A DNA stretch of 35,744 nucleotides, from IMG/VR virus record IMGVR_UViG_3300037311_000082; one strand, 5' to 3'. This DNA comes from a virus. Under the pieces are notes generated by a model. The model did no database searches, was not told the origin of the DNA, and saw only the letters and a list, made by a program, of their open reading frames with translations. This document shows, in pieces, positions 5,207 to 25,652 of this stretch. Numbering within the stretch: position 1 is the first letter of the stretch; every line of letters starts with the position of its first letter. Position numbers and translations under genes: made by a program.

Positions 5207-5322
5207 TCCTCGCCCTCTGCATCCTCGCCCTGCTGGCCCTGGTCGCGGCCCTCGCCGTGGCCGAGGCCGGCGAATCCGACTACCCCACCGCTGCAGAGTG
5301 GCAGCAGGAGATTGACCAGTGA
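5194..5322 (+). CDS. Small single-pass membrane protein (42 aa; below the ORF-track size cutoff)
   Basis: My own translation: VRDLILALCILALLALVAALAVAEAGESDYPTAAEWQQEIDQ*. The hydrophobic helix is followed by an acidic tail. Its stop overlaps the exonuclease start (GTGA). Confidence 0.45.
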   Translation: MRDLILALCILALLALVAALAVAEAGESDYPTAAEWQQEIDQ

Positions 5323-6230: not shown

Positions 6231-6239
6231 GAGCCCACC

Positions 6240-8162: not shown

Positions 8163-8632
8163 TGGACCTGCCGCCGATCCCCACCGACGTGATGGAGCGA
8201 CTAGCTCTAGCCAGAGACATTGCGCTGCGATACCCAGTCGCGTACAGCGACGTAGATAACGGCGAACTTTACTGGGGCCTCTGTGCCGCGATAGTGGCGG
8301 TCGATAAGGCATTGGCCGAGCGCGACGCCCTGCGCGCCGAGGTCGGGCGGCTGAGTCGATTGGTGTACGAGATTGAGACGCGATGCGACCCCGCGGGCGA
8401 AACGCAAGAGCGTGTGCTGGCCGTAGAAACGGCTACCGCCGCACTCGCCGAAGCGCAGGAGTTGCGCGCCGAGAACGCCAAGCTGCGGGCGGCCCTTGAG
8501 GCGGCGCCGCTTCCGCTGGGCCTGCTTGAGCTGGATGGCAACGGCGACGTTGTTGCCGTCGTTGACCCGGAAGACCCCGACTACCACAACTGGTACATGA
8601 CCACCCGCGCGGAGGCCCTGCGCCGTGAGTGA
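8162..8632 (+). CDS. Hypothetical coiled-coil protein (156 aa)
   Basis: Listed ORF 8105..8632, trimmed to ATG 8162 (TGATG overlap with the HNH stop). The central region is heptad-like and Ala/Glu/Leu/Arg-rich. Confidence 0.65.
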   Translation: MDLPPIPTDVMERLALARDIALRYPVAYSDVDNGELYWGLCAAIVAVDKALAERDALRAEVGRLSRLVYEIETRCDPAGETQERVLAVETATAALAEAQELRAENAKLRAALEAAPLPLGLLELDGNGDVVAVVDPEDPDYHNWYMTTRAEALRRE

Positions 8633-8981
8633 CCTGACCGCCGAGGACTACGCCCGGGTCGCGGTGGCGATTGGGATGGAGAAGTACCAGAGCCTGCTGG
8701 ACGACCTGTGGTACTGGAAGGACCCAGCAGGGCCGCCGGCAACCTATCTCGGCGAGAACGGCGTGACTGCCGACCTCCCCGCCTACCTCGCCGAGCCGGC
8801 GCAGATGGTGAGGATCATGGAGGAACTCAAGGTCAGCGTGCGCTTCGACGTGGAACTGTGCCACTGGATCGCTGAGGCCCTGAATGCGACCGGCGAGGGC
8901 TGCCACTGGGTCCACGGCGTAGCGCAGGACAAGCCCGGGCTCGCGGTGCTGGACTGCGCGGCGCGGGCGCTGCGGCCGTGA
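8625..8981 (+). CDS. Hypothetical protein (118 aa)
   Basis: Listed ORF with balanced composition. Overlaps both neighbours by a few nt. Confidence 0.65.
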   Translation: MSDLTAEDYARVAVAIGMEKYQSLLDDLWYWKDPAGPPATYLGENGVTADLPAYLAEPAQMVRIMEELKVSVRFDVELCHWIAEALNATGEGCHWVHGVAQDKPGLAVLDCAARALRP

Positions 8982-9163
8982 ACTTGTCAGCAATGCTTAC
9001 ACGTTGGCTGCGGCGGTGGCTCCACAGCCTCGCGCACCGGCTGGGCTGGAACCACGGGCGCGTCTGGTCGATCACCGACAGCGACGGCAACGTGTGGATT
9101 GGCTTCGAGTGTGGCGGCTGCGGCAGCATCGACGACGTGCATAAGCGGGCGCTGCGGCCATGA
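8978..9163 (+). CDS. Hypothetical protein (61 aa)
   Basis: Listed ORF with a GTGA overlap at its start. Contains FECGGCGS. Confidence 0.5.
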   Translation: MNLSAMLTRWLRRWLHSLAHRLGWNHGRVWSITDSDGNVWIGFECGGCGSIDDVHKRALRP

Positions 9164-9336
9164 TCGAAATCCGCTGGACCAGAGACCCCGCCGAGCGTGC
9201 CGCAACCACCCGGACGGAAATCGTCGTGCGGCTCGTCAGCGAAGCCACCCTTGACGACGTGTTAGAGGCCGTCGGGGATTTTCTGATCGCCGCCGGCTAT
9301 TCGGCCGAGGGCGTCCGCGAGAGGCTGGGCGAGTGA
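9160..9336 (+). CDS. Hypothetical protein (58 aa; below the ORF-track cutoff)
   Basis: My own translation from ATG 9160 (ATGA overlap): MIEIRWTRDPAERAATTRTEIVVRLVSEATLDDVLEAVGDFLIAAGYSAEGVRERLGE*. Confidence 0.5.
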   Translation: MIEIRWTRDPAERAATTRTEIVVRLVSEATLDDVLEAVGDFLIAAGYSAEGVRERLGE

Positions 9337-9355
9337 TCGTCACCCAGGAACAGCC

Positions 9356-9739
9356 GTGACCGACACGCTCACCATCGCCGAAGCCGCCGAGCTGCTCCAC
9401 CTGCACCCGGACACCGTGCAGGCCCGCGCCGCCGCTGGCATCATCCCCGGCTACCGGCCGGGACGCCGGTGGGTGTTCCTCAGGGACGAGCTGCTGGCCT
9501 ACCTGAGGTCGACCGCCCCATGCTCTACAAGCGCCCCGATTCGCCCTTCTGGTGGGTCCGGTTCACCGTCGGTGGACGCCGAGTTAGATGCTCTGCTGAG
9601 ACGGCCAGCCGGCGCGAGGCGGAGGCGTTTGCGCATCGTCTCCGGGAGCGGGAATGGCGGCGCAGCAAGACCGGCGAGCGCACGTGGGCCGAAGCCTGCG
9701 TCCGCTGGCTCCGCGAGCACCAGCACAAGCGAAGCCTAG
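9356..9739 (+). CDS. xis: Excisionase-family / MerR-like HTH DNA-binding protein (the functional domain is roughly the first 55 aa)
   Basis: LTIAEAAELLHLHPDTVQARAAAGIIPGYRPGRRWVFLRDELLAYL matches the excisionase-type HTH pattern. It sits directly upstream of int. The frame stays open for 220 nt into int and encodes a low-complexity tail. Confidence 0.6.
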   Translation: MTDTLTIAEAAELLHLHPDTVQARAAAGIIPGYRPGRRWVFLRDELLAYLRSTAPCSTSAPIRPSGGSGSPSVDAELDALLRRPAGARRRRLRIVSGSGNGGAARPASARGPKPASAGSASTSTSEA

Positions 9740-10536
9740 ACCGGGACCAGGCCGTCATCGCGTGGAGCCGGGACCACCTCGGCGACGCCTTCCTCGCCGA
9801 CCTGGACCGCGACCGCCTGACCGCCCTGCGGGCCCTGCGGACCGGGGGCCCGGCCACCGTGAACCGGGACATGGCCGTCGTCCGCGCCATCCTGAATGCC
9901 GCCGTGGACTGGGGCTGGCTGCCAGCCGCACCCAAGGTGCCCATGGCGACCACCACCAGAGAGGACCCGCGCTGGCTGACCCGGGAGGAGTTCTCGGCCC
10001 TGCTCGGGCACCTGCCCGGCCACACCCGGCAGCTCGCGCGCTTCGCCGTCGCCACCGGGCTGCGCCGGGCCAACATCACGGGCCTGCGGTGGTCCCACGT
10101 GGACCTCGGGAGGCGGCATCTCGCAATCCCCGGGCGACTTTCGAAGTCCGGCCGCCCCATCCCCGTGCCCCTGAACGCCGACGCGCTCAGGGTGCTTCTG
10201 GTGCAGCGGCGCGTGACCCGGGAGCGGGTCCGCCGGGGCATCCCGTGGGTGTTCCCGTACCGCGACGAGCCGCAGTCCCAGGTCGCGACGGCGGCGTGGC
10301 GGCGCGCGGTCAAGGCCATCGGCCGCGAGGGCTTCCGCTTTCACGACCTCCGCCACACGTGGGCGAGCTGGCACGTGCAGGCCGGGACGCCGCTGCACGC
10401 CCTCCAGGCTCTGGGCGGCTGGTCGACGCTGGCGATGGTGCAGCGCTACGGGCACCTGGACAGCGCCTCGCTGCGGAGCTACGCCGACGCGGTGGGGCAC
10501 GTATCTGGCACGCGGGCCCGGAGGCGGTCGGCGTAA
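9520..10536 (+). CDS. int: Tyrosine integrase (338 aa)
   Basis: Listed ORF 9469..10536, trimmed to MLYKRPDSPFWWVRFTVGGRRVRCS (typical N-terminus). Catalytic signatures: ATGLRRANITGLRW, HDLRHTWASWHVQAG and GGWSTLAMVQRYGHL. Confidence 0.93.
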   Translation: MLYKRPDSPFWWVRFTVGGRRVRCSAETASRREAEAFAHRLREREWRRSKTGERTWAEACVRWLREHQHKRSLDRDQAVIAWSRDHLGDAFLADLDRDRLTALRALRTGGPATVNRDMAVVRAILNAAVDWGWLPAAPKVPMATTTREDPRWLTREEFSALLGHLPGHTRQLARFAVATGLRRANITGLRWSHVDLGRRHLAIPGRLSKSGRPIPVPLNADALRVLLVQRRVTRERVRRGIPWVFPYRDEPQSQVATAAWRRAVKAIGREGFRFHDLRHTWASWHVQAGTPLHALQALGGWSTLAMVQRYGHLDSASLRSYADAVGHVSGTRARRRSA

Positions 10537-10549
10537 GCTGCTGATTTCG

Positions 10550-10594
10550 TGGTGCCGGGGAGAGGATTCGAACCTCCGACCCACGCATTACGAA
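10550..10594 (-). tRNA. Partial tRNA: 3' half (positions 32-76) of a tRNA-Thr(CGU)-like gene = predicted attP core
   Basis: The minus strand reads TTCGTAA|TGCGT|GGGTC|GGAGG|TTCGAAT|CCTCT|CCCCGGC|A|CCA. These are the anticodon loop with CGT, the 3' anticodon stem, a 5-nt variable loop, the T arm, the 3' acceptor strand, the discriminator and CCA, all with canonical lengths. The 5 nt further 5' (CTGCC) cannot pair with TGCGT, so the tRNA match stops at the anticodon loop. Confidence 0.8.
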
Positions 10595-10648
10595 GGCAGC
10601 GCGCGAAGGTACCAGCCTTCGGAATCAGGTGGTTACACGTGGAACGTC

Positions 10649-10718
10649 CGTGCCAGACCGGCCTAGACCGGCCGATTTCGGCGGGCGCCGGTGGGGCGCT
10701 GGCACGTGATTGGCACGT
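10649..10718. repeat. Short repeat cluster next to the att core (candidate Int/Xis/IHF arm sites)
   Basis: CGTGCCA at 10649-10655. AGACCGGCC twice, at 10655-10663 and 10665-10673. TGGCACGT twice, at 10700-10707 and 10711-10718, inverted relative to the first GTGCCA. Confidence 0.4.
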
Positions 10719-11179
10719 CAGCCCGGGTATTGCGCCCTCGGCAACTCGAAGTGCGCGCCATCCAGGAAGGGCCGCTGGTTCGCCGCCCGCTTCCGGGTCA
10801 CGTACTCCTCGACGAGCCGGGCGGGGTCGCGGCCCGGCGTGAGCACGGCCCAGGCCCCACCCCAGCGGACGGGGACCCGGAGGTCCTTGCTGGCGTCCCG
10901 GAACGCCACGGCGATCTGCAGGTAGAGCCCCCAGTCCCAGCGCAGCTCGCGGCCGACGTAGGCGCCCACGTCGATGGCGTGGCCGGTCAGGTGGCGGGAG
11001 TCCAGCGTCTTTGAGGCGCCGGCGGCGAGGAGCTGCTGCTGGCGCGCCAGCGTCCGGACGCCCTCCGTGACCGCGAAGTCGACCGGGGAGCGCTCGAGGG
11101 CCGCCGCGGCGAGCCGCACGAGGTCGGGGTGCACGCCCTGCAGCCGGGCGAGGGAGCGCGCCGAGAAGTGCCACGGCAT
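10718..11179 (-). CDS. Endolysin, peptidase M15 (VanY / L-Ala-D-Glu peptidase-like), 153 aa
   Basis: Zn-ligand pattern SRHLTGHAIDV ... DGAHFE. ATG 11179 is preceded by GGGGAGAA. It is the last gene of the late operon, next to the spanins and holin. Confidence 0.88.
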   Translation of the reverse strand: MPWHFSARSLARLQGVHPDLVRLAAAALERSPVDFAVTEGVRTLARQQQLLAAGASKTLDSRHLTGHAIDVGAYVGRELRWDWGLYLQIAVAFRDASKDLRVPVRWGGAWAVLTPGRDPARLVEEYVTRKRAANQRPFLDGAHFELPRAQYPG

Positions 11180-11768: not shown

Positions 11769-12010
11769 GGCGGCGGGTGGCCGGGGACCTGGGTCACGTA
11801 CTTGCCGACGACGTGGCCGGCCTGCCGCTTCGTCCACCGGTCGCAGTACTGCGCCAGCGCGGTCATGATCGTCGTCAGCGCGGCGGCCTCGCCGGGGCCG
11901 AGCCGGGGCAGGCCCTCCCCCGCCCAGCCGTTCCACGCCCACAGGATCATCTGCGCCACGGCGCCGGCCAGCAGGCCGACGGTGACGATGTTCGGGCGGT
12001 TCTCGTTCAT
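11765..12010 (-). CDS. Putative holin (81 aa, two hydrophobic segments)
   Basis: Listed ORF with NIVTVGLLAGAVAQMILWAW and AAALTTIMTALAQY. It sits in the lysis cassette with ATGA/GTGA coupling. Confidence 0.55.
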   Translation of the reverse strand: MNENRPNIVTVGLLAGAVAQMILWAWNGWAGEGLPRLGPGEAAALTTIMTALAQYCDRWTKRQAGHVVGKYVTQVPGHPPP

Positions 12011-12294
12011 GGCGTCCTCCGCTCGGCCATGCGGTCGAGCTTCTCGTGCAGCGTGTTGACCTGCCGCTCGACGGACTCGCGCATCCGCTCAAGCTGCCCC
12101 CGGCTCTCGGCGGCGTGCTCGTCGAGCAGCTTCCGCAGCTCCTTGTGGTCCTCGCGGTCGTGCTTGTCGGCCCGCTCCTCCAGCTTCGTGACTCGCGCCG
12201 ACTGGCCAGCCCACAGGAAGCCGGCCAGCGTCGTAACGCCGAGGGCCAGCGTCGAGGCAACGGTTTCCCAGGTGACGTGAATCGGGTCGTTCAT
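12007..12294 (-). CDS. Membrane protein with coiled-coil tail (95 aa); holin/antiholin candidate
   Basis: Listed ORF 12007..12306 (TTG start), trimmed to ATG 12294. TM segment TVASTLALGVTTLAGFLWAG, then a charged helical tail. Confidence 0.55.
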   Translation of the reverse strand: MNDPIHVTWETVASTLALGVTTLAGFLWAGQSARVTKLEERADKHDREDHKELRKLLDEHAAESRGQLERMRESVERQVNTLHEKLDRMAERRTP

Positions 12295-12309
12295 GGGGTC
12301 TTCCAAGGC

Positions 12310-13575
12310 TCAGGGGATGCGGAACGCCACGGCCGGCGTGTCGTGACGGGGGGCGGCCACCAGCAGCTCGCCGTCGCTGAACTCAGCGATGCGCGCCTTC
12401 GAGTAGATGCCCGACGTGGTGACGTGCTGCCCCGGGGTCACGGTGTTGCCGGCGTCGAGCAGCGGCGCCCACGTCCAGGTCCCGGTGAGCTTGTTGGCGG
12501 GCGCCACGAGCTCGTGGACCTCGGCCCGGTTCGCCTGCCGGTTGTCGTAGTAGACGATGGAGCTGCGCCGCCGCGACCACATGAGGGCGCCGGTCTTGTG
12601 GAGCACGCCAGGCGGGGTGCCACCCATGGTCAGCGTGATGCGGGGCTGCGGGACGCCGCCGACGATGCGCGAGGCATAGAGGCGCTTCGTCGTCGGGTTG
12701 AAGTCCGACCACACCAGCAGGTCATCGTCGGCAACGGCGCCCGGGATGAGCACCATGTCGGACTCGTTGGTGTTGTCGTTGAAGGCGTAGTTGGTGACCG
12801 TGCCGTAGGTGCCGTCGGCGTTCAGCACGTCGAGGCTCGCGGTCTTCACCATCTGCCGGTCCGCGTAGGACGTGTGGCAGAGCAGGGTCCAGAAGCACTG
12901 CCGGCGGTCATCCCACACGGTCCGGCCGCCGTTGTTGTACCGGCCCACGAAGGTGTCGTTGTACTTGGTCGGCCGCCAGAGGCCGGTGAGGACGTCCATG
13001 GCCGAGCCGCGCGCGAGCTTGGCGTCCTGGGTCGAGGCGGTGAAGCTCGACACGCCGCGCGGCAGGAAGATGAGCTTGCGGCCGGGGTCGAAGCCCGGGT
13101 AACAGTAGGTGTGCGTCGGGACGGGGTAGCCGTCTGCGAAGAAGCCCGTCGGGTAGGTGCCGGCGCCGCCGCCGTTGAAGGGCCCCGCCGAGGGGTTGCT
13201 GATGCGCTGCCAGGCGCGCGTGCCGAGGTTGACGACGTACACGGCCGAGTCGCGGCCGACGCTCTCGTGGCCGCCACCGAAGCACGCGAGGCCGCCGTGG
13301 GTGCCCCACGCGCCCGGCGAGAGCATGACGCCGCCGTTGTAGCTCTCGATGATCGTGCGGACGTTGCTGCCCGCGAGGCCGGACTGCACGTCCGTGAGCA
13401 GGTTCGTGCTGGCATTGGCCCAGCGGCCGGCGATGATCGCAGAGGCCCACGCGGGCAGTGCGGGCAGGCCCGGGGGCGGCGTGGTGCCGCCACCGCCCGG
13501 AGCGGGGCCCGGGGCTGCCGCTGGCGGGAGCTTCCGCAGCGGGAACGGCGGGCTTATGAGGCCGGGCTTGCTCAC
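12310..13575 (-). CDS. Tail-fibre-module protein, beta-propeller-like (421 aa)
   Basis: Listed ORF with a Pro/Gly-rich N-terminus followed by a repetitive Gly/Trp/Asp-rich beta-type sequence. It is the last gene of the tail module and is coupled (ATGA-type overlap) to the upstream fibre gene. The fold assignment is a guess. Confidence 0.6.
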   Translation of the reverse strand: MSKPGLISPPFPLRKLPPAAAPGPAPGGGGTTPPPGLPALPAWASAIIAGRWANASTNLLTDVQSGLAGSNVRTIIESYNGGVMLSPGAWGTHGGLACFGGGHESVGRDSAVYVVNLGTRAWQRISNPSAGPFNGGGAGTYPTGFFADGYPVPTHTYCYPGFDPGRKLIFLPRGVSSFTASTQDAKLARGSAMDVLTGLWRPTKYNDTFVGRYNNGGRTVWDDRRQCFWTLLCHTSYADRQMVKTASLDVLNADGTYGTVTNYAFNDNTNESDMVLIPGAVADDDLLVWSDFNPTTKRLYASRIVGGVPQPRITLTMGGTPPGVLHKTGALMWSRRRSSIVYYDNRQANRAEVHELVAPANKLTGTWTWAPLLDAGNTVTPGQHVTTSGIYSKARIAEFSDGELLVAAPRHDTPAVAFRIP

Positions 13576-15101
13576 GGCAGCGGGACTCCCTGCTGGAAGG
13601 GGAAGGGGATGGCCGAGTAGTCGATGACCACCTCGTCATAGAACTGCCGCATGACGGGCCGGTAGCCGACCTCGGACGGCTGGTTCGTCGGGTAGTTCAT
13701 GAAGCTGATGAGGTTGACGCCCGGCAGGCTGCCGCCGAGGCTGGTCTTCGTGAAGGAGCCCGGGCCGCTGACGGCCACGCCGAGGTTCCAGATGCGCTTC
13801 GGCGGCTGCCCGCGGGGAGCGGCCCAGCAGATGGCGACGTCGCCGCCCGCGCTCGGCACCATGTTGATGTAGAACTCGAAGACCATCCACACCAGCGGCG
13901 TGAAGGGCACGGCGCCGGAGAGCAGCGCGTCGGGGTTCGGCACGGGGAAGCCGCGCGCGTCGGCGTAGTTGGCGGCGGCGTTGGTGCCGATGTACGGCAG
14001 CGGCTCGCGGGCCACGCGGATGTGCCGGCTCGGGCCGAAGACGCGGTTGGCCTCGACGTTCGTCGTGAAGGGCTGCGCCGTGTAGATGGCGTTCTGGTAG
14101 AACCAGTCGTTGTCGCGGCCACCGCTGCCGGCGAGGTAGCGCTCGACGCCGCCAGAGCCGTCGGTGAAGAAGCCCGGGAAGCCGAGCAGCTTGGGCACGT
14201 AGAGCGCGATCTGCCCGCCACCCGTGGTGTCGGTGACGTTGATCGTCATGAGCTTCTGGCCGTCGTCGGTGTTCGTCCGCCGCCAGAAGAGCGCCGCCCG
14301 GTCCAGGGCGATCTCGACCTGGAAGTAGAAGTTGTTCATCCGCGTCGGCGGACGGAAGCTCCAGTTGCCGCCGTTCTGCCCGGCGCGGTCGAAGGTGCGA
14401 ATCTCCAGGCACTTCCCGCCGGAGAGCACCGGGGGCCCGCCGGGGTCGCCACGGTAGAGCTTGTACTCGGCATCGAGCGAGCCGCCCGGCGGCTGGGCCG
14501 CGATGGCGCCCGCCGCGGCCAGTTCGGCGTCGGTGCCGTACTCGGAGAAGTTGAAGGCCATGACGCGGCCCGCCGAGCGCAGCAGCCAGTCGGCCTCGTC
14601 GTCCACCGTGCCGCCACCCCCACCACCAGCGGGCACGACACCGCGGATGATCGGCCGGAAGCGCAGCTCCCGGGCATCGGTCGCTACCGCCACGGGCGTG
14701 CCGTCGTCGACCAGGCGCAGCGCGTTCGCCACCATGCTGCCGGTGGTGCCGGGCGGCAGGATGCGGGTGATGGGGTCGCCGGCCGGCGTCGTCGTCGCCA
14801 GCTCCACGGACTCCACCTCCCAGCCCGGCGGCGGCACGTAGTTCTGCAGGATGGCGACGTCGGTGGTGCCGGGGGCGTTGGATTCCAGCGTGTACGGCGT
14901 GAACTCCAGCCACGAGCCCAGCGCCTCGGGCTGCACGGGCGGCAGCTCGGGGAGCGGCAGCGGCTCGGCCTCCACGAGGCCCGACGCCGTGCCCATGATC
15001 GTGTGCCCGTTGCCGGTGCCGCCGGGGATCGGGTTGAGCTGCGGCTCGAACTCCGTGTTACCGACGGTCTGGCCGCGGCCGGGGGCAGGAGGGTATGGCA
15101 T
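13572..15101 (-). CDS. Tail fibre/spike protein 2 (509 aa) with a conserved N-terminal anchor and a jelly-roll-like C-terminal domain (possible depolymerase)
   Basis: The N-terminus MPYPPAPGRGQTVGNTEFEPQLNPIPGGTGNGHTIMGTA is homologous to the N-terminus of ORF 16515..17363. The C-terminal region (..VWMVFEFYINM..ICWAAP..FMNYPTN..RQFYDEVVIDY) resembles lectin/lyase jelly-rolls (recalled from memory). Confidence 0.65.
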   Translation of the reverse strand: MPYPPAPGRGQTVGNTEFEPQLNPIPGGTGNGHTIMGTASGLVEAEPLPLPELPPVQPEALGSWLEFTPYTLESNAPGTTDVAILQNYVPPPGWEVESVELATTTPAGDPITRILPPGTTGSMVANALRLVDDGTPVAVATDARELRFRPIIRGVVPAGGGGGGTVDDEADWLLRSAGRVMAFNFSEYGTDAELAAAGAIAAQPPGGSLDAEYKLYRGDPGGPPVLSGGKCLEIRTFDRAGQNGGNWSFRPPTRMNNFYFQVEIALDRAALFWRRTNTDDGQKLMTINVTDTTGGGQIALYVPKLLGFPGFFTDGSGGVERYLAGSGGRDNDWFYQNAIYTAQPFTTNVEANRVFGPSRHIRVAREPLPYIGTNAAANYADARGFPVPNPDALLSGAVPFTPLVWMVFEFYINMVPSAGGDVAICWAAPRGQPPKRIWNLGVAVSGPGSFTKTSLGGSLPGVNLISFMNYPTNQPSEVGYRPVMRQFYDEVVIDYSAIPFPFQQGVPLP

Positions 15102-15104
15102 GGC

Positions 15105-16511
15105 CTACCTCGGGGCCCGCCAGGCGCGGGTTCGGGGCGTGCGCCGGACCACGCCGCGGACCTCGTCGAGGGTCTGGTACTTGCTCGGCTGCACGTACCA
15201 GAAGGGCGCGAAGAGCGGGTCCCCCATGGGGGCCTGCAGCGAGAGGGACGCATCGTAGTAAGCGGCCTCGAGCGGCGTCATGCCGGCGAGCAGGAGGTAG
15301 AGCAGCGACCAGCTCGTGGCCGGCGAGGCGGCCGTGCGGTGGGTCACGTCGGTGACGCCCCACGCGGCGCCACGCTGAAGGGAGCGCAGGCTGTACTGGA
15401 AGCCGCCGGAGAGCCCGCCGAGGTACGCGCCGCCGCCCCGCGTGGGCTGGATGGCGTTGGTGTACGGCGCCGTCGTCAGGGGGTTCTCGTTGTCGGAGCA
15501 GTCGTAATGCACCATCGCGGGGTAGCCGACGACGGCCCCGCTGTCGAAGTCGGGGTCCGTGAAGGCCTCATCGGGGCCACCCGCCGGGCACAGCGTCGCG
15601 GCGAGCCCGCTCGGCGCCTGCCGCCAGAAGTACTTGGCCCAGAAGCCCCACTCCTTGAGGCGCGTGTACATGGACGCGCTCGTCGCGAGGTAGCCGCTGA
15701 ACTCGCGGACGCCGACGAGGATGGGCCCGCTCTGCACGTCCTGGCCGTAGGCGGCATCCGCGGCGTCGGTCGCGCCGAGGGCGTTGGCGGCCGTCTCGAG
15801 GCCATCGGCCGAGGTCCAGCCCGTGTACCCGATGCGGCCGGCAGGGATGACCGGGGAGCCCGCCGACAGGGTCTGCGTGGCGAGCACGGTCGCCAGCCGG
15901 GTGTTCGTGGCCGTGGGCCCGAAGAGGTCGGAGAGCTGCGTGACCGGCGACATGGTGGCGTCATTGCCAACGCCGAGGAAGTCCCACACGAAGCCGTTCC
16001 AGAGCGGGGTCGGCGGGACAAGGTTGGCAACCGGCGTGCCCGACCACCGCACGTTGGTGACGGTGGGGTCGGCGGTGACGGCCAGGAAGCCGCCGCGCGC
16101 CGCCACGCGGGCCGCGAAGCTCCGCGCCCCCGCGGCGAGCAGGGCCAGCGGCGCATTCGCGGTGGCCGTCGGGGCGAGATAGCCCGTGCCCTGCACAAAG
16201 ACGCCGCGCACGACGATGCCGTTGGGGCAGCCCGGCGCGATGAGCACGCCGACTGCCCCGACCTGCGCGTACTTCGCCGCCAGCGGGTCGACGATGGCGG
16301 TACTGATCGCCGCGTTGTCGCCCGGGTCGAAGGCCACGTCCGACGTGCCCAGCGACAGCGGGATGATGTTGGCGAGCGGAATCCCGCGCCGGCGGCAGTA
16401 GGCCTCCGCCGCCGGCACGGAATAGGCCTCGCTGCTGTTGGCGAGGACGACGAGCCGCTTCCGGTCGATGGGCCGGAAGTCGAACGTCCGCGGGTGGCCG
16501 ACGACGGGCAC
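15105..16511 (-). CDS. Tail-module protein of unknown function (468 aa); possibly a TIGR03790-family-like enzyme
   Basis: Listed ORF. LVVLANSSEAYSVPAAEAYCRRRGIPLANIIPL near the N-terminus and GDPLFAPFW near the C-terminus resemble, from memory, the uncharacterized exosortase-associated TIGR03790 family. It lies between the two fibre genes. Confidence 0.55.
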   Translation of the reverse strand: MPVVGHPRTFDFRPIDRKRLVVLANSSEAYSVPAAEAYCRRRGIPLANIIPLSLGTSDVAFDPGDNAAISTAIVDPLAAKYAQVGAVGVLIAPGCPNGIVVRGVFVQGTGYLAPTATANAPLALLAAGARSFAARVAARGGFLAVTADPTVTNVRWSGTPVANLVPPTPLWNGFVWDFLGVGNDATMSPVTQLSDLFGPTATNTRLATVLATQTLSAGSPVIPAGRIGYTGWTSADGLETAANALGATDAADAAYGQDVQSGPILVGVREFSGYLATSASMYTRLKEWGFWAKYFWRQAPSGLAATLCPAGGPDEAFTDPDFDSGAVVGYPAMVHYDCSDNENPLTTAPYTNAIQPTRGGGAYLGGLSGGFQYSLRSLQRGAAWGVTDVTHRTAASPATSWSLLYLLLAGMTPLEAAYYDASLSLQAPMGDPLFAPFWYVQPSKYQTLDEVRGVVRRTPRTRAWRAPR

Positions 16512-16514
16512 GGG

Positions 16515-17363
16515 TTATGTCGCGTCCGTCACGCTGCCCGTGAGGGTCCACGTCCCGGTGCCGTCGCCCTGGTTGAAGCCGTCGTTCCAACCCTGCGCCG
16601 TGTTGCCGGCCATGGCGTCGGCCTGCTGGGTGTCGCCGAAGCCGATGGCGGGGCGGCCCGTGGGGTTCGACAGGTTGGTGCCGAGGTTCTTCGCCGGGAA
16701 GAAGGCCGCGGGGTCGGTGATGAGCTGGCCGAAGTCGAACCATGCCAGCCCGAGGCGGCCCGTCATCCGCTGGATGCCGCCCGGCGTGCCGCCGATGCTC
16801 CACGCCGTCGGCGCCGGCATATCGGCGGTGCCGAGCAGCGCGCCCACGACAGTCTGCGGCTGGCCGTTGAGCCACGCCTGCAGCAGGTTGGGGTTCGACC
16901 GGATGGCGACGTGCAGCACGTAGTCGTTGCCGGGCACGATGCCACCCGCGGGCACGATGGTCGCGCCGGCCACGCCGGCATTCGAGAAGTTGGTCGGCGA
17001 GTTGAGGGTTACGCTGCCGTCGACGTTGACGTTGAACAGCCCCAGCGGGGCGCTGCTGGTCTGGCCGATGAGCGTCTGCAACGTCGCCAGCGAGGTCAGG
17101 CGAAACGCCACGGCGGCCGTCATCGAGCCGTTCGCGGCCAGCCCGAGGTTCGTGGCGTTGCTGAGCTGCGTGGAGCCGTTGAACGCCACCTGCCGGTAGG
17201 CGTAGGCGTAGGGGTCCATGGGCGCGCCGATCATGCCGAGATCGTTCGCCGTGCCGCGGATCGTGTGGGCATTGCCCACGCCGCCGGGGATTCCAAGCCG
17301 CTGCGTCTCCAACGCCGTCCCCGGCGTCGTCTGGCCGCGCGCGTTCGCACTCGGGTAAGGCAT
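16515..17363 (-). CDS. Tail fibre protein 1 (282 aa): conserved N-terminal anchor plus LamG/concanavalin-like lectin domain
   Basis: N-terminus MPYPSANARGQTTPGTALETQRLGIPGGVGNAHTIRGTA. The remainder has a LamG-like pattern (..MTAAVAFRLTS..LFNVNVDGSVTL..YVLHVAIRSN..AWLNGQP..GRLGLAWFDFG). Confidence 0.65.
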   Translation of the reverse strand: MPYPSANARGQTTPGTALETQRLGIPGGVGNAHTIRGTANDLGMIGAPMDPYAYAYRQVAFNGSTQLSNATNLGLAANGSMTAAVAFRLTSLATLQTLIGQTSSAPLGLFNVNVDGSVTLNSPTNFSNAGVAGATIVPAGGIVPGNDYVLHVAIRSNPNLLQAWLNGQPQTVVGALLGTADMPAPTAWSIGGTPGGIQRMTGRLGLAWFDFGQLITDPAAFFPAKNLGTNLSNPTGRPAIGFGDTQQADAMAGNTAQGWNDGFNQGDGTGTWTLTGSVTDAT

Positions 17364-17378: not shown

Positions 17379-20165
17379 TTAGAACCGTGGTACGCCGCCG
17401 GCGCGCTGCTGACGCTCGCGCTCCCGGCCCTGCTCGATGAATGCCGGCGGGGGCGACACCGGCCGCACGTTGGCCTGCCCCTCCAGCACCGCCTGCTCGA
17501 TCTGCACGCGGTAGCGCTCGATGAACGTCGCGCGCCCCGCGGCCATGCCCTGCGTGAGCGCCGCCGACAGGATGTCGCCCCGCGTGAAGGCGCCCTCCGC
17601 GGCCTGCGCGCCCCCGATGGGCGCCTTCCGGTACTCGCCGGCACCGATCACCGACTTGACGGCCTTGCGCCGCTCGGCGCCCACCGCCTGCCGGTACTCG
17701 TGGCACGCCCAGCCCGGGCCCTTGCCGGTGTCCAGCGCGTGCAGGTCCACCGCGACGCCATCAACCGAGAACTCGCAGCCCACCGCCGACGGCGCCACGC
17801 CGTTCTGCGCGAGCGCATAGGTCGCGTCGTCGTCCTTGTACCGGGCCATGAAGAACGGGCTCACCATGTCGGGGCCGATGTAGTCCTGCCCCTGCAGGGG
17901 CTCGCCCCAGAAGTCGAGCTTCGGCGGCAGGTCCTCGTAGAAGTCCGGGATGGGGATCGTGCTGCGCACGTAGGCGGCGGCGTTCTCCAGCGGCCCGCCG
18001 ACCTGCGTCTCGCGCGGCACGCCGTCCACCTCCTGCGTCACCGTCCGCAGCAGCGAGGAGTACGGCACGAAAGACTGCGCGAGCCGGCCGAGGAAGTTCG
18101 TGCTCCCGCCGCTCTGCGCCGCCGACATGGCGTCCATGAGGTCGGACAGCCCGGTGAGCATGGTCTTGTCCTGCATCACCTCGGCGAGCGCCGCCGTCAT
18201 CACGACCAGGATGTGCTCGCGCTGCTTGTCGCTGGTCGCATAGCGGTAGGCGTCCGCCATCTCGGCAATCGAGGCCAGCGGCGTGGCAATCGGGTCCATG
18301 CGCTGGTAGCTCAGGGCGCCCTCGGGGCCGCCGAGGATGTAGGGCTTCCAGCCGAGCTTCTCGTAGACCTTGCGGAGCTGCGGGTTCGGCGGGCCGGAGC
18401 CGGACAGGCTGCCGTCCATGGTCGCGCTGATCGCCCACACCGCCACCGCCGAGCCCAGCACGGCCCGCGCCATGGCCTCGTCGCGCTTCGCCCCACCGGC
18501 CTGCACCGACCGCCAGAAGTTCGGCGCCGTGAAGAAGATGGGCGAGCGCTCGACCGCGTAGCTCAGGATGTTGGCCGGCGTCCGGTAGAACGGCACGATG
18601 AGCCGGAACGTCGGGCTTGCCCGGTGCATCGACGCCAGGCCCTTGCCGAAGTCGCTGGCGATGTCGTCGGTGAAGGTCTGGTAGCGCGCGAAGTCCAGCG
18701 ACTGCCGGTAGATGTCCTGGAAGGTGCGCTCCTCCGCCGACAGCCGGCCGGCGAACTCAAGGGCGAGGTCATCGCCCGTCAGGCCGTCGGCGCCGAGCTT
18801 CTCCAGCAGCTTCTCCTGGTTGGGGCCGGCGAGAATCTCCTCGATGCGGGCGCCGATGGCCTTGCCGTCGGTGAGCCCCTCCTGCCGGGCGACGCGGTAG
18901 GCGAGCGCCCGCGCCTGCTGGTTGAAGGCGAGGGTCTTGTAGAACTCGTCGGCCGCCGTCAGGGCCCGGCCCGGGGCGCTCACGAAGGACGCCGCGTAGT
19001 CGTAGGCCGTCGCCATGGGGCTGTCGTGCGGCAGGCCGTACTTGCTGGCGCTCTCCACGGCGCCGCCCGCGCTCTCGACCTTCGTGCCGCCGAAGACGCT
19101 GTCCCCGGTCTTCGCGGCCTTGCCGGCGAGGCGCAGCGCGTCGGTGAGGTTCATCACGTCGCCGTAGAACATCTCGGCGACTTCCTGCGGGAACACCTGC
19201 CCGGAGCCCACCGTCTGGCTGATGACGCCGGCCAGCGCTCGCTCGGGCATCGACAGCACGTTGACCACCGCGTTGCTCGCCGCGTTGACGACGTGGGTCC
19301 GCGGCCCCGAGAGCAGCGACATGGTCCGGTAGTAGACGAGCTTCTCCGCGGCCCGGCCCAGCCAGCCGACGGAGCCCGCCTTCTTGCTGGCCTCCTCCAC
19401 GGTCTTGGCGCGGCCGATGGTCACCGCCTTCTGAAAGATGGCATCGGGCCCGCCGCCGAGTCGCGCGGCCTCGAAGATGGCCTGAGGGTCGAGCCGGTCG
19501 GGCACCGCCTTCAGGGCGTTCAGCGCCCGCGCCGTGTCCCGGGTCGCGCCCTGCACCGACGACTGCAGCGCGATGTGCCGGTACAGCGCCCGCTGGTACT
19601 CCACGAGGTCGAGGTCGGACACCCCGCCCCGGCCTCGGGTCTCAAGCTGCCGGCCCCACTCCTGCAGGTTCTCGGCGCTCGCCACCATGAGCTGCCGGGC
19701 CTTCGTAAGCTGGGCGTCGTTCAGCGTCTGCCCGGGCTTCCGCTTCATGAGCATGCCGAGCATGGTCCGGTCGTCGATGGCCGCCGCCTCCTCGCGGACC
19801 GTGGCGAGGTTGCGCGGCTTGTAGCCGGCGTTCTGGGTCGCGATGCTGACGGCGTCGAGGACCTGGTCGACGCCATCCGGGGTGTCGAGCCGGTCGAGGT
19901 TGATGTTCCGGTACGGGGTCCGCGGGTCGCCGAGCGGCTGCGGGGCCGTCTGCCGGCCGAGGACGGCGGCGGCGTCGGAGGCCGAGGCCAGCGGGGCGCC
20001 CGCCGGGGTCTGGCCGGCCTCCACCATGCGCTCGGTGGCCGTGGGCGCGGGGGCCTGCGGCGGCGGGGTGGCCTCGGGCGGCGGGGCGTCCGGCGGAGCC
20101 GCGCCCTCCGGCTTCACCGGCGGCGGCTCGGGCTTGCGGAGGGTCGGGCGGGGGATGCGGGCCAT
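17379..20165 (-). CDS. Large internal virion / DNA-ejection-type protein (928 aa; positional analogue of T7 gp16)
   Basis: Listed ORF 17379..20807, trimmed to MARIPRPTLRK (ATG 20165, TAATG overlap). The upstream 214 codons are Arg-rich and overlap the real gene 20165..20920. Size and position, between the tail tube and the fibres, support the call. Confidence 0.6.
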   Translation of the reverse strand: MARIPRPTLRKPEPPPVKPEGAAPPDAPPPEATPPPQAPAPTATERMVEAGQTPAGAPLASASDAAAVLGRQTAPQPLGDPRTPYRNINLDRLDTPDGVDQVLDAVSIATQNAGYKPRNLATVREEAAAIDDRTMLGMLMKRKPGQTLNDAQLTKARQLMVASAENLQEWGRQLETRGRGGVSDLDLVEYQRALYRHIALQSSVQGATRDTARALNALKAVPDRLDPQAIFEAARLGGGPDAIFQKAVTIGRAKTVEEASKKAGSVGWLGRAAEKLVYYRTMSLLSGPRTHVVNAASNAVVNVLSMPERALAGVISQTVGSGQVFPQEVAEMFYGDVMNLTDALRLAGKAAKTGDSVFGGTKVESAGGAVESASKYGLPHDSPMATAYDYAASFVSAPGRALTAADEFYKTLAFNQQARALAYRVARQEGLTDGKAIGARIEEILAGPNQEKLLEKLGADGLTGDDLALEFAGRLSAEERTFQDIYRQSLDFARYQTFTDDIASDFGKGLASMHRASPTFRLIVPFYRTPANILSYAVERSPIFFTAPNFWRSVQAGGAKRDEAMARAVLGSAVAVWAISATMDGSLSGSGPPNPQLRKVYEKLGWKPYILGGPEGALSYQRMDPIATPLASIAEMADAYRYATSDKQREHILVVMTAALAEVMQDKTMLTGLSDLMDAMSAAQSGGSTNFLGRLAQSFVPYSSLLRTVTQEVDGVPRETQVGGPLENAAAYVRSTIPIPDFYEDLPPKLDFWGEPLQGQDYIGPDMVSPFFMARYKDDDATYALAQNGVAPSAVGCEFSVDGVAVDLHALDTGKGPGWACHEYRQAVGAERRKAVKSVIGAGEYRKAPIGGAQAAEGAFTRGDILSAALTQGMAAGRATFIERYRVQIEQAVLEGQANVRPVSPPPAFIEQGRERERQQRAGGVPRF

Positions 20166-20920
20166 TACGGGCTCCCGGCCGGGGCAGGCGCGGCGGCCTC
20201 CGCCGGCGGCTTCTTGAGCGCGGTCACGAAGTCCCCCGCCATGTCGGGCCAGCGCCGAAGCCCCGCCCGCACGCCGCGGAACACCGGGGCGAGCAGGCCG
20301 AGGCCGGCACCCTCCACGGCCGCCCGCAGGCTGGCGTCGAACTCGTCGTCGGCCAGCTCGCCGGACAGCGACTGCGTCAGCAGGTTGTCGATGCCGAGCC
20401 CGCGCGCCACGTCGGCGAGCGTCCCGGTCTTGTTCTCGAACGCCATCATGTCGGCGAAGGCGCCCGCCCCCATCTCGCCGAGGATCGTCGAGCCGCCCAG
20501 GGACGCCACGGCGGGGCCGTACAGCGTGAGGAAGGTCGTGAGGCCCCGCGCCATGCCGCCGGGCAGGCCCTCCTGCCGGGGGCCCTCGGGCAGCATCCGG
20601 CCCGACGGCAGGTCGCGGAACACCTGCATGGGCTGGCCGTAGAAGCCAGCGCCGCCGCCCGTAACCCGGGAGACGACTTCGTTGGCCGCCCCGCCTGCCT
20701 TGCGGGTCAGGGTGTCGATGGCGTCCACGGGGCCCATAAGCGCTCCCGTGACAACGTCGCGGACCGTGGTGCTGGCGGCGTCCACGGCCTCTGGCGAGAA
20801 GCCCCACGCCGGGGCCGGGCCGGCCGGAGCCTTCTGCCGCGCCGCCGCCGCCATGTCGGCCTGCGCCGCCTCGGTGTACGGGCGGGACCGGATGCGCTCG
20901 AAGTAGGTCTGCTCGGCCAT
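20165..20920 (-). CDS. Internal virion-type protein (251 aa)
   Basis: Listed ORF with balanced composition, coupled to both neighbours. Function is inferred from position only. Confidence 0.55.
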   Translation of the reverse strand: MAEQTYFERIRSRPYTEAAQADMAAAARQKAPAGPAPAWGFSPEAVDAASTTVRDVVTGALMGPVDAIDTLTRKAGGAANEVVSRVTGGGAGFYGQPMQVFRDLPSGRMLPEGPRQEGLPGGMARGLTTFLTLYGPAVASLGGSTILGEMGAGAFADMMAFENKTGTLADVARGLGIDNLLTQSLSGELADDEFDASLRAAVEGAGLGLLAPVFRGVRAGLRRWPDMAGDFVTALKKPPAEAAAPAPAGSP

Positions 20921-22847: not shown

Positions 22848-25652
22848 TCAGTTCACCTTCAGGTCGCCATACAGGGCGACCACTTCCGTGCGGTGGGGCA
22901 GGTCCATCTCGATGTCGATGGCGCCGTCGCCCCAGCCGGCGCTGTTCACCTCGAACTCGCCCGTGCGCAGCCGCCCCGGGTTGGCCCGGAAGCCGCCGGG
23001 CTCGTTGTAGTCGCTCGGCCGGTCGCCGTTCACCTTCGGCAGCGCGCTCTGGTAGAGCCGCACGGCGAGGTCGCCGAAGCGCTTCTTGTTGCCCGTCGCG
23101 GGCCCCGCCGGGTTGCCGACGACGGGCTCCATGGTCCGGATGCGGCCGACGAAGGCCTCGCCGATGACGAGCCCAGAGCCAGCCGCCGGCACCGTCGCCA
23201 CGAGGGCGAGGCGCTCCTCGAGGGTGAAGTCGTCGACGTAGGCCGTGCGCGTGCTGAAGGACGCCAGCGGCACGTCGACGCCGAGCTTCGCGTAGCTCGC
23301 GCCCATCGGGGCCACGCCGACTACCTCGGCCTGCGTCCACACCGACCCGCTGCCGTTCGCGCAGACGACGGGCAGCTCCTGGAGCAGCACGTTCGAGGCG
23401 TCGAAGAAGCGCAGCACCAGCCGGAGCCAGTTCCGCAGCGACGTGGCCTCCTGCCACCAGGCCCGGCCGCGGTACGTCGCCCCCGGGACCACGGGGAAGT
23501 TCGTGCTGGAGAAGACGGCGCCCGTCGCCACCGCGCCCATGGCAACCCGCAGCGACTGGGTGCCCGTCCGGGCGGCGAGCGCGCTGTTCGTCACCGTGCC
23601 CGTGCCCGTGACGGTCCAGCTTGCGAGGGTGCCGGACTCGAGGCTGTCGTCGGGGACGGCCACGGAGGTGTAGGCCGGGGTCACCACCGTGACCGGCAGG
23701 CCCGTCGACTGGACGCTGCCGTCGGCGTTCAGGACCGTCACGAACCGCCCGCCGAGGTGCAGGAGGTCGCCGGCCACGCCGAGGGCGGCCGTCCGCACCG
23801 CCCAGCCGTCGAGGTGCCGCGTCGCCGTCGTGTCGGCCACGTCCACCGGGGCGGCCGTCGCCGGGTACGGCAGCCGCTCCACGGCCGTCGTCGACACCCG
23901 CGACAGGGCCAGCCACAGCACGTCGCCCTCGGTGGGGTCGAACAGCGGCGCTATGGCGCGCACCGTCGCGTTGAAGGTCTGCCGGGCGAAGGCCACCATG
24001 TCCTTCTGCCGGCTGTAGGTGATCGCCAGCACCAGGCCGGGGCGGTCGGTCTGCGCGTACAGCACCGGCTGCGGCTGGTGGCAGTAGACGAGCCGGTCGA
24101 GCCCGTACCGCGCCAGGTGCTCCGCGAGCGCCGACACCTCGTCGGTCTCGTAGGGCCCGCGCTCCGCGTTGCGCCGCACCGTGAGGAGCTGCTTCCGGTC
24201 CTGCGAGATGAAGAGCACCTCGTTGCCCACCGTCACCGCCATGCGGTCGGCGCAGCGGTCCGCGCTCAGGGGCGTCAGCGTCACGTCGGCCGGCGTCAGC
24301 GCGACCTGCGCGGTCGCCGCCCACACGCCCGCCGAGGTGCCGATGACGAGGCCCTGCTGGCTCACCAGCCACCGGATGGCGGGGGCGTCCTGGGCGTCGA
24401 TCTCCCGGGACAGCGCCGTGCTGTCATCCACGCCCAGCACGAAGTTCGTCGGGTCGCCGATGGCCGAGCCCCAGAAGGCCTGCGGGGCGAACGGGGTGCC
24501 GCCCACCATGAGCCGCTGCTGGTGGAAGCAGCACGCCGCCGGGAAGCCGCGCCCGCCGGGGCCGTAGCTCGTGTTCGGCCCCACCCAGGTCGTGCTCGGC
24601 TGGATGCTCCCCCACGCCGGCGCACCGCCCAGCGGCTCCCACAGGGTCGGGGCGGCCGGCGGTGCCGTCGCCGTGCTGACGTGCGCCTGCAGGCAGCGGT
24701 AGTAGGTGCCCGAGTGCAGGACCACCGTGGGGTAGCTCCACGCGCGCTCCTCGCCCTCGCGGCCGACGGTGTTCTTGGCGACGTCCACGCGGATGCTCGC
24801 GGACTCCGCGACGGCCACCGCCGACACGTCCACGCCGCCGCTCTGGCCGGTCAGGGTGACCCGGTACTTCGTGCCCGACACGAAGGCCACCGTGATCTCG
24901 GCCTCGTTGTTCAGCCAGCGGGATTTCAGTAGCCCGGCCTTGATGGTCTCCCGGACCTCGGCGGTGATCGTCGTGTAGACGAAGGGGACCGGCGCGAGCT
25001 GGCGCCGCCGGATGGTGCCCTGTTCCGGGCGGCGGAACTCCTGGATGGGCTCGCCGTTCACGTACAGGTTGAAGGTGTTGCCGGCCGAGAAGCCGATGAA
25101 GTCGAAGTCCGTGATGCTGTCCTGCTTCGGCGGGCTCAGGGCGTCGCCGAAGACCTGCAGGGGGTACAGCGCCACCGGTACCGGGGTGATCGCCCAGCTC
25201 GCCACGCCGTCGATGCGCATGATGAGCGGCGGCATCCCGGGGGCCGTCAGCGCCAGCAGCCGCCCGCGCTGCGCGTACTGCATCCGCGCGCTCACCGTGA
25301 TGCCGGCCGGCAGCGTCACCGTGTACGGCGACCCGCCGACCATCACGAGGCCCGCGTTCGTCCACCCGCGCACCGTCGTGCCGGAGAACTCCAGCAGCAG
25401 GTCGGGCTCGCCGGGAGCGCCGGCCCGCCAGGGCACGAAGACCACGTCCGGGGCCGGCGTCGCACCGCTCGAGGCGGCGAGGCCCATGTGCTGGGTGCCC
25501 CGGCGGAGGATGCCACCGCCCTGCTGCAGGGCGACCACGTTCTCGGCCAGCCGGCAGGCCCGGCCGTAGCGCTCAAGGTCCGCCCGCGCATCGACCCGCG
25601 GCGACACCTCGCCGCCGGTCAGGTCGCTGATGAGGACCCGGGCCTCGGCCAC
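22848..25652 (-). CDS. Tail tubular protein B-like (934 aa) with an internal CBM4/9-like carbohydrate-binding module
   Basis: The N-terminus (LISDLTGGEVSPRVDARADLERYGRACRLAENVVALQQGGGILRRG) resembles the T7 gp12-type start (L.GGiS.. R.. N.. G.. RP). Residues about 668-813 (DDSLESGTLASWTVTG..TYRGRAWW..SVWTQAEV..AYVDDFTLEE) fit a galactose-binding-like jelly-roll. Confidence 0.7.
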   Translation of the reverse strand: MAEARVLISDLTGGEVSPRVDARADLERYGRACRLAENVVALQQGGGILRRGTQHMGLAASSGATPAPDVVFVPWRAGAPGEPDLLLEFSGTTVRGWTNAGLVMVGGSPYTVTLPAGITVSARMQYAQRGRLLALTAPGMPPLIMRIDGVASWAITPVPVALYPLQVFGDALSPPKQDSITDFDFIGFSAGNTFNLYVNGEPIQEFRRPEQGTIRRRQLAPVPFVYTTITAEVRETIKAGLLKSRWLNNEAEITVAFVSGTKYRVTLTGQSGGVDVSAVAVAESASIRVDVAKNTVGREGEERAWSYPTVVLHSGTYYRCLQAHVSTATAPPAAPTLWEPLGGAPAWGSIQPSTTWVGPNTSYGPGGRGFPAACCFHQQRLMVGGTPFAPQAFWGSAIGDPTNFVLGVDDSTALSREIDAQDAPAIRWLVSQQGLVIGTSAGVWAATAQVALTPADVTLTPLSADRCADRMAVTVGNEVLFISQDRKQLLTVRRNAERGPYETDEVSALAEHLARYGLDRLVYCHQPQPVLYAQTDRPGLVLAITYSRQKDMVAFARQTFNATVRAIAPLFDPTEGDVLWLALSRVSTTAVERLPYPATAAPVDVADTTATRHLDGWAVRTAALGVAGDLLHLGGRFVTVLNADGSVQSTGLPVTVVTPAYTSVAVPDDSLESGTLASWTVTGTGTVTNSALAARTGTQSLRVAMGAVATGAVFSSTNFPVVPGATYRGRAWWQEATSLRNWLRLVLRFFDASNVLLQELPVVCANGSGSVWTQAEVVGVAPMGASYAKLGVDVPLASFSTRTAYVDDFTLEERLALVATVPAAGSGLVIGEAFVGRIRTMEPVVGNPAGPATGNKKRFGDLAVRLYQSALPKVNGDRPSDYNEPGGFRANPGRLRTGEFEVNSAGWGDGAIDIEMDLPHRTEVVALYGDLKVN

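Follow-up and report, generated by a model that had tools for sequence, protein, structure and literature searches.

A divergent phage variant of the uncharacterised TIGR03790 family in a conserved two-gene cassette of a probable appendage

The viral DNA of IMG/VR record IMGVR_UViG_3300037311_000082, a stretch of 35,744 nt that is called the window throughout, was analysed with regard to the gene at positions 15105-16511 of its minus strand, which encodes a protein of 468 aa. This protein is a divergent phage variant of TIGR03790, an uncharacterised protein family, and its gene is part of a conserved two-gene cassette, probably for an appendage, the other member of which specifies a partner protein of 282 aa. 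The biochemical function for which it is a candidate is that of a hydrolase of surface glycans.

At a GC content of about 72%, spurious reading frames abound in mechanical lists of open reading frames (ORFs) of the window. The 468-aa ORF, starting with GTG and ending with the stop codon at 15105-15107, shows GC values of 0.67, 0.57, and 0.95 at the three codon positions, which is usual for genuine genes in this DNA. A filter for third-position GC left a single co-directional train of genes on the minus strand, and the 468-aa ORF is among them, starting 3 nt past the stop codon of the preceding gene and ending 3 nt before the start of the next one. In a separate public assembly (Logan), proteins of 928, 282, 468, 509, and 421 aa were called independently in this order on a contig of 13.6 kb. 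The two peptide strings from which an earlier, sequence-only reading of the window had set out, RKRLVVLANSSEAYSVPAAEAYCRRRGIPLANIIPL within residues 17-52 and GMTPLEAAYYDASLSLQAPMGDPLFAPFW within residues 410-438, are both present in this protein.

A full-length, distant homologue of TIGR03790

From these two strings it had been suspected that the protein belongs to TIGR03790. In a search of NCBIfam with profile hidden Markov models (HMMs), TIGR03790.1 was indeed its only match (22.7 bits, E 5.9e-5), extending over residues 19-71, that is 53 residues, and over positions 2-54 of the 316 in the profile. The curated cutoff of this model is 67 bits, and the protein is therefore not a member of the subfamily as curated. 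None of 70 aligned relatives appears to reach the cutoff either. For further comparisons two alignments were used, one of these 70 full-length phage-type relatives (A2) and one of 11 bona fide TIGR03790 proteins (A3). Of the sequences in A2, 31 matched TIGR03790 at E<=1e-3, the best at 2.6e-17. A word-index homologue search returned two relatives of the 468-aa protein and hardly any for its alignment. When 1.84 billion cluster representatives were searched exhaustively with a profile of its family, 131 relatives were obtained, and the weak tail of this search consisted of bona fide TIGR03790 proteins with 237-342 bits each. Alignment of A2 to A3 by hhalign gave a probability of 99.7% (E 7e-26) over 335 columns, with residues 10-444 of the 468-aa protein placed on residues 32-395 of the cellular protein P0129, including the GDPL..PF motif. 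As a control, the phage-type profile was aligned to an unrelated alignment, yielding 0.1% and E 0.63.

The weak direct HMM score and the short stretch it covers would be compatible with a match by chance, or by the composition of an ORF of high GC. Against it stand the reciprocal profile searches, the 31 relatives matching the model, and the hhalign result together with its control, from which it follows that the likeness is not accidental; in addition, intermediate sequences carry the EPY and TS.S motifs of the cellular proteins. Chance can practically be dismissed. The 468-aa protein is a full-length yet distant homologue of TIGR03790, so that the suspected relationship holds at the level of a superfamily and fails at that of the curated family. 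Motifs occurring in the same order in both groups are N..S...Y...RGIP..N, RI(D)G, a conserved Ser, RGAA, G.(T/S)..EA, and GDPL..PF. In the searchable literature, no mention of TIGR03790 (CHP03790, IPR022265) was found.

The phage-type branch

All 132 representatives were scored with a phage-type and a cellular-type profile. Approximately 114 of them fit the phage profile better, and 18 are of the cellular type. The phage-type proteins are shorter (median length 466 aa vs 521 aa), and a hydrophobic, signal-like N-terminus is present in 4% of them as opposed to 72% of the cellular-type representatives. The 468-aa protein has no such N-terminus. Matches to a C-terminal extension resembling tetratricopeptide repeats (TPR) were confined to the cellular set. 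The phage-type branch, the 468-aa protein included, has lost the TPR tail of its cellular counterparts as well as their signal peptide. In public sources these proteins are named 'hypothetical protein' at most; they constitute a large unnamed branch, which was phage-borne in all contexts examined. A scan of the genome collection with the 468-aa protein as single query gave no match.

The sequence-only reading had also described TIGR03790 as reported only from genomes with exosortase/PEP-CTERM systems, an association for which no paper was found. Two cellular TIGR03790 loci contained housekeeping neighbours only and no trace of such a system within 8 kb, a range that bears neither way on co-occurrence at the level of whole genomes.

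In two members of about 700 aa, P0037 and P0038, the domain is split at profile positions ~190/191 by an insertion of ~160-190 residues. The C-terminus of P0037 is a basic tail, RRYRAPRYRSRLDGRR, resembling that of the subgroup to which the 468-aa protein belongs.

Predicted fold and conserved residues

With the 70-sequence alignment, AlphaFold2 produced a globular alpha/beta model of the 468-aa protein (pLDDT 90.9, pTM 0.90), in which disorder is confined to residues 445-468; a prediction from a 3-sequence alignment was not usable (pLDDT 33). Foldseek searches of PDB and BFVD with the model gave no match at E<=1e-3. Profile searches of PDB sequences returned noise (nitrogenase, E 0.02) or TPR only, and when the 70 family members and 11 cellular proteins were compared with Pfam at lax thresholds, the one family to recur was TPR, in the tails of the cellular proteins. 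Likewise, no known fibre or tailspike family was matched in PHROGs, Pfam, or BFVD, and the model is globular, not fibrous or beta-helical.

Residues shared by phage and cellular members, sought as candidates for a catalytic site, could be identified. Invariant in A3 are, in the numbering of P0129, Asn47, Ser53, Tyr60, Arg64, Ser310, Glu341 within the sequence EPY, and Asp383. The 468-aa protein retains Asn25, Ser31, Tyr38, Arg42, Ser368, and Asp431. In the hhalign register, Ser368 corresponds to Ser310, Asp431 to Asp383, and His391 stands at the position of the invariant Glu in EPY. Among the 70 phage-type sequences, Ser368, lying inside G-x-S-x-G, is conserved in 69, Asn25 and Asn341 in 67 each, Asp431 in 65, and Tyr38 in 63, and the position of His391 is occupied by His in 63 and by Glu in five. 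In cellular proteins, HSFS is found in place of GxSxG. The GLSGG sequence is predicted between a strand (354-364) and a helix (371-379), and the conserved polar residues are located at, or just past, the C-terminal ends of predicted beta-strands, the classic position of active sites in alpha/beta folds. The five A2 members with Glu also bear EP[YLF] and TS.S motifs of the cellular style, and the two of them that were checked are both phage-borne. They are regarded as evolutionary intermediates, which indicates that His and Glu were exchanged at one fixed site. The Ser/His(Glu)/Asp pattern suggests a putative acid-base or metal-binding role.

The last 24 residues of the 468-aa protein contain seven Arg or Lys and two Asp or Glu, and read in part PRTRAWRAPR. 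A basic tail of the form R.PRRW..RRLR, together with the preceding low-confidence linker, is conserved in its nearest relatives, making the tail a candidate docking peptide.

A conserved pair with a modular partner

Directly upstream of the TIGR03790-like gene, a gene related to that of the 282-aa protein is present in the window and in the loci L001, L002/L017-19, L004, L005, L011, and L020. Identity to the 282-aa protein is 37% in L001 and 47% in L002 and L017-19; in L005, where the TIGR03790-like genes are just 23% identical, the partner was found by profile. The association was also approached from the other side, starting from partner homologues, and one context, L020, a metagenomic phage of the P22-Cro/ERF type, was looked up. 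Here, a 242-aa partner (53% identity; 10001-10729) is directly followed by a 439-aa protein recognized by the family profile at E 6e-92. No 282-like partner was detectable in L013, L014, and L015, which contain more distant members, and no fusion of the two domains was found when this was sought as a Rosetta-stone test.

The conserved part of the partner begins with V.FDG.ND.L, which we take to be reminiscent of a jelly-roll of the ConA/LamG type, a resemblance that profile searches of the libraries and PDB did not confirm, and it ends with WNAGTNLG.GTGTWTM.G.VT. The N-terminus is different in each kind of phage: MPYP...GN.HT in two T7-like ones (window, L001), ...AYAEGRA.AFGIGP.NPHA in the SU10-like ones, MHVGLGLNLGVGLGVG with its (LG)n form in L020, and MDFLSLSLGLG in L011. 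Since the N-terminus switches with the phage backbone, the partner behaves as a modular receptor-binding fibre, and it is with its distal domain that the TIGR03790-like gene travels.

In the window, the first 42 residues of the 282-aa protein are 60% identical to those of the 509-aa protein encoded on the other side of the 468-aa gene (MPYP..RGQT...IPGG.GN.HTI.GTA..L), and the two sequences are fully divergent thereafter. A 326-aa protein of L001 has the same kind of N-terminus. The common 42 residues point to a shared attachment module, and the 282-aa and 509-aa proteins are probably alternative appendage proteins for one docking site.

Phage contexts and domain fusions

Besides the window, eleven contexts of family members were inspected, and all twelve are phage structural modules; bona fide TIGR03790 genes, in contrast, lie in cellular loci. 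In the T7-like temperate phages L001 and L011, the gene follows those for internal virion proteins and precedes lysis genes and the integrase gene. In SU10-like podoviruses (L002, L004, L005-7, L013, L017-19) it is flanked by the capsid protein gene on one side and the gene for the head-tail adaptor on the other, and on the L017-19 contigs of 17-18 kb the partner/TIGR03790-like pair is the sole obvious appendage candidate. In L014, a siphovirus with a lambda-type tail, it is found between head-completion genes and the gene for the major tail protein, and in L008 and L015 it adjoins terminase or portal genes, the terminase of L015 being identified from sequence only. In L015, the second gene downstream of the family member shows weak matches to beta-helix families of Pfam.

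Two types of fusion were detected. P0039 (883 aa) and P0042 (1084 aa) start with a Phage_tube_2 domain (E 6e-27 and 1e-25), and this part matches the 'major tail structural protein' of siphoviruses of Xanthomonas, Stenotrophomonas, and Pseudomonas. Where these proteins have the TIGR03790-like domain, tube proteins usually bear decoration domains. P0034 and P0045 possess a C-terminal spike-base domain, scoring 45-46 bits at a cutoff of 28. These two independent fusions imply that the domain sits on the particles of those phages. A stand-alone spike-base protein of 82 aa is encoded in L020 (2664-2912; E 7e-16 to the spike-base domains of P0034 and P0045). A spike base was also considered for the 117-aa protein whose gene directly precedes that of the partner in L020, but this protein is not spike-base-like. 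For the C-terminal extension of P0091, a jelly-roll of the polysaccharide-lyase type was considered and dropped, because PDB and the phage collection gave no confirmation.

Organization of the window

According to PHROGs and Pfam, the minus strand of the window carries a T7-like structural module. Its order is large terminase, portal, probable scaffold, major capsid protein, tail tube A, tail tube B, four internal virion proteins with the last one gp16-like, the 282-, 468-, 509-, and 421-aa ORFs, two small genes, and endolysin. The four ORFs stand at the place taken by gp17 in T7. Neither Pfam nor PHROGs gave a match to the 468-aa protein or to its three neighbours in this slot, and no library annotates the flanking genes as fibre. 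The placement between fibre genes assumed in the sequence-only reading is supported by synteny and by the common N-terminus of the flanking proteins, and finds no counterpart in the annotation of these flanks. The features of the region are listed in Table 1.

Table 1. Features of the 468-aa gene and of neighbouring genes in the window
Feature	Position	Strand	Basis
N-terminal beta-alpha-beta motif, aa 19-71 (LVVLANS...Y..RRGIP..NII.L)	16299..16457	-	Sole stretch matched directly by the TIGR03790 HMM
GLSGG, aa 366-370, GxSxG motif with Ser368	15402..15416	-	Conservation, hhalign register
DVTH, aa 388-391, including His391	15339..15350	-	Conservation, hhalign register
GDPLFAPF, aa 430-437, C-terminal signature common with TIGR03790 (GDPLYRPF)	15201..15224	-	Asp431 in 65/70
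Low-confidence linker (probably disordered) and basic tail, aa 445-468	15108..15179	-	AlphaFold2, composition
282-aa partner, variable N-terminal anchor and conserved domain, lectin-like by sequence pattern only	16515..17363	-	Upstream homologues in 7 loci
42-aa N-terminus of the partner, probable virion-attachment module	17238..17363	-	60% identity with 509-aa protein
509-aa protein, candidate second appendage protein	13572..15101	-	42-aa N-terminal anchor at 14976-15101; no library match
421-aa protein, fold unknown	12310..13575	-	No family or PDB match; L020 homologue
gp16-like internal virion protein, ~928 aa	17379..20165	-	phrog_6651; 928-aa call on Logan contig

The gp16-like gene was listed mechanically as an ORF of 1142 aa (17379-20807, minus strand), which is over-extended at its 5' end and overlaps a distinct high-GC3 gene of 251 aa in a different frame (20165-20920). 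The true start is probably near 20165 (MARIPRPTL...), resulting in about 928 aa.

A homologue of the 421-aa protein (47% identity) is encoded in L020 at 8407-9669, two genes upstream of the partner/TIGR03790-like pair, and the fibre-slot genes of the window may therefore travel as one block. Just downstream of these genes, the window encodes a 99-aa protein (12007-12306, minus strand) with a weak match to a PHROG termed 'lipoprotein'. Its N-terminal half is nearly identical to that of a 94-aa protein of L020 (12053-12337; MNDPIHVTWETVASTLALGVTTLAGFLWAGQ...), which directly follows the cassette there. Such near-identity on otherwise differing backbones suggests a recent exchange of a block for host interaction and lysis. 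A 356-aa, Trp-rich and partly hydrophobic protein without PHROG match (34273-35343, minus strand) is 31% identical (E 1e-10) to the 117-aa protein of L020 (9669-10022), whose gene immediately precedes that of the partner. Tail tube B (934 aa; 22848-25652, minus strand) contains a sub-threshold match to CBM_5_12 at residues 309-339 (E 2e-4, 21.8 bits at a cutoff of 26.2).

An integrase gene (9469-10536, plus strand; phrog_1, E 2e-69) and genes for a RecE-like exonuclease and a Bet/RecT annealing protein (5319-6926, plus strand) characterize the virus as a temperate podovirus. The sole nucleotide match to cultured phages is a stretch of 114-126 nt (~10332-10458), which shares 80-81% identity with five Ralstonia solanacearum phage records that lack annotation and which falls into the integrase gene, within its 3' part. 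The best lead to the host is a 29% match of the portal protein to a metagenome-assembled genome of Rhodospirillaceae. In an ARAGORN scan of positions 1-35744, no tRNA and no tmRNA were detected. Neither an attachment site nor host flanks were identified, and the window may thus be nearly all phage.

Proposed role and alternative explanations

It is proposed that the 468-aa protein is a component of host recognition on the virion, a displayed putative hydrolase paired with the 282-aa partner, and we give this reading as a whole an even chance. The protein would be produced jointly with the 282-aa protein, whose gene directly precedes its own, and its globular alpha/beta domain would be shown on the particle, perhaps docked via the basic C-terminal tail. 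The partner, held by an N-terminal anchor that depends on the phage backbone, would bind glycan through its lectin-like C-terminal domain, and the displayed domain would hydrolyse surface polysaccharide or its substituents, with Ser368 as a possible nucleophile acting together with His391, the counterpart of Glu in the cellular family, and Asp431. The parts of this proposal differ in strength. The protein is probably present on the virion of this phage, in agreement with what the sequence-only reading had supposed; the tail-tube and spike-base fusions of relatives and the pairing with a fibre-like partner argue for it, all of them indirectly. The two proteins may be in physical contact. Hydrolysis of a surface glycan is possible, at somewhat below even chance. 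The depolymerase or deacylase proposed earlier is plausible; it gains a hint from the conserved Ser/His(Glu)/Asp residues and support from a fibre that probably binds glycan, and loses by the finding that no enzyme family or fold known so far was matched.

Several observations weigh against the proposal. The gene has been met in a fibre slot, in the gap between capsid and adaptor genes, in the head-tail joining region, and beside terminase or portal genes, and this variation makes its place on the particle uncertain. When 50,697 genomes of cultured phages were searched by tblastn, using four members of the family as well as the partner and one extension as queries, no carrier of the domain was found. 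Neither fold nor sequence of the 468-aa protein matches a known enzyme, the grouping of Ser368, His391, and Asp431 is one by conservation and predicted strand ends, and GxSxG is not kept in cellular TIGR03790. Polysaccharide genes are not near the two cellular loci. Finally, the slot directly downstream of a fibre gene is a classic one for fibre-assembly chaperones.

This last point leads to an explanation in which the protein is absent from the particle and acts in the infected cell as a non-structural assembly factor, serving the fibre-like protein encoded upstream as its chaperone or as an enzyme of its modification or maturation. The gene lies strictly next to that of the partner and is inherited along with the C-terminal domain of this protein in different phage backbones, as fibre-specific assembly proteins of the Tfa, gp38, and gp57 types are with their fibres, and a globular alpha/beta fold instead of a fibrous one and the lack of a signal peptide would fit as well. 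Such a factor is difficult to reconcile, however, with relatives in which a tail-tube protein or a spike-base domain is part of the same polypeptide, with the missing partner in L013, L014, and L015, and with cellular homologues that are secreted and have no fibre partner; a length of about 450 aa and a polar site of such deep conservation would also be unusual for a fibre chaperone. We consider it unlikely. The same fusions, placing the domain at the C-terminus of a tube protein or at a spike base, where binding or decoration modules are usual, are in line with a displayed module that is not catalytic, such as an adhesin, a carbohydrate-binding domain, or a hub carrying fibres, the conserved residues serving binding or folding. 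No enzyme similarity was found, and the absence of GxSxG from cellular TIGR03790 is easily accommodated. The near-invariant Ser, His/Glu, and Asp at the C-terminal ends of strands, however, look more like an active site than a binding surface, and the exchange of His and Glu at a fixed site preserves a residue capable of acid-base chemistry or metal binding, so that a purely binding module is about as improbable as an assembly factor.

A caspase-like fold of peptidase clan CD, with Ser in place of the catalytic Cys and a host surface or phage protein as substrate, was also considered. Among the Foldseek matches of best probability, this was the sole recurring theme (separase 5fby, 5fc3, 5mz6, 5u1s; CHAT/Craspase 7y84, 8d9f), and the conserved Ser follows a long beta-strand like the Cys of clan CD. 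These matches are, however, not significant (E>=0.01, TM ~0.2, root-mean-square deviation 6-8 A), no sequence signal for any peptidase family was obtained in Pfam or PDB, and the conserved His comes after the Ser, the reverse of the His-then-Cys order. A peptidase of this kind is very improbable.

Implications

New from this work is a phage-borne sister branch of TIGR03790, comprising at least ~110 clusters at 50% identity, which is located in the virion modules of both podoviruses and siphoviruses, where it is linked to a fibre of modular build and lectin-like appearance. TIGR03790 itself has no known function, no Pfam model, and no solved structure; it now gains a testable setting at the phage-host surface, a small soluble version, and candidate catalytic residues. 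For phage biology, the branch represents a new, widespread accessory to receptor-binding proteins, found in no cultured phage. If the 468-aa protein is an enzyme, a new fold would be added to the surface-modifying activities associated with virions.

A broader interpretation is put forward tentatively, as less likely than not. The TIGR03790 superfamily might consist of structurally new enzymes acting on envelope or matrix through a Ser, His/Glu, Asp site, which were repeatedly mounted on phages and would form an unrecognised two-component apparatus that binds and modifies receptors. The enzyme would be mounted either as a separate protein next to a lectin-like fibre or by fusion, to tail-tube proteins in some phages and to spike bases in others. 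If this is true, characterization of the phage protein would provide the first functional assignment for the cellular family.

Comparison with known systems

Compared to clan CD proteins such as separase and CHAT, the 468-aa protein displays the weak recurring structural resemblance mentioned above, over ~220 residues, with the different order of residues and without a Cys.

Two-component receptor systems of podoviruses consist of an adaptor and an enzymatic tailspike, examples being K1-5/SP6 and G7C with gp66 and the esterase gp63.1. The window is similar in that, within a T7-like fibre slot, the gene for a small protein with an anchor precedes that for a larger, globular and possibly enzymatic one, and in that two anchor-bearing proteins are encoded. 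It differs in that neither sequence nor fold resembles those of SGNH esterases or of beta-helix tailspikes, and attachment of the 282-aa and 468-aa proteins to each other is only inferred here.

The third comparison is with the Rhodobacter capsulatus gene transfer agent (RcGTA). The head fibre of this agent, Rcc01080, has an N-terminus of the form (hydrophobic-Gly)n, which serves as a plug into Rcc01079, the spike base and a pentamer (PMC7296036), and the fibre is lectin-like and binds capsular polysaccharide (PMC10218006). In the window no spike-base gene was found, and the partner has another anchor, of 42 aa; for RcGTA, in turn, no TIGR03790-like component is described. TspA of RcGTA, considered as a related protein, was rejected as an unrelated trimeric tailspike. 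The similarities reside in the relatives P0034 and P0045, which end in a spike-base domain, in L020, where a spike-base gene is accompanied by a partner N-terminus resembling the Rcc01080 plug IALGLGLGL, and in the partner itself, which by its sequence pattern looks lectin-like, as does the RcGTA fibre (PMC10218006). Spikes of the RcGTA style may thus exist on true phages alongside a TIGR03790-like protein.

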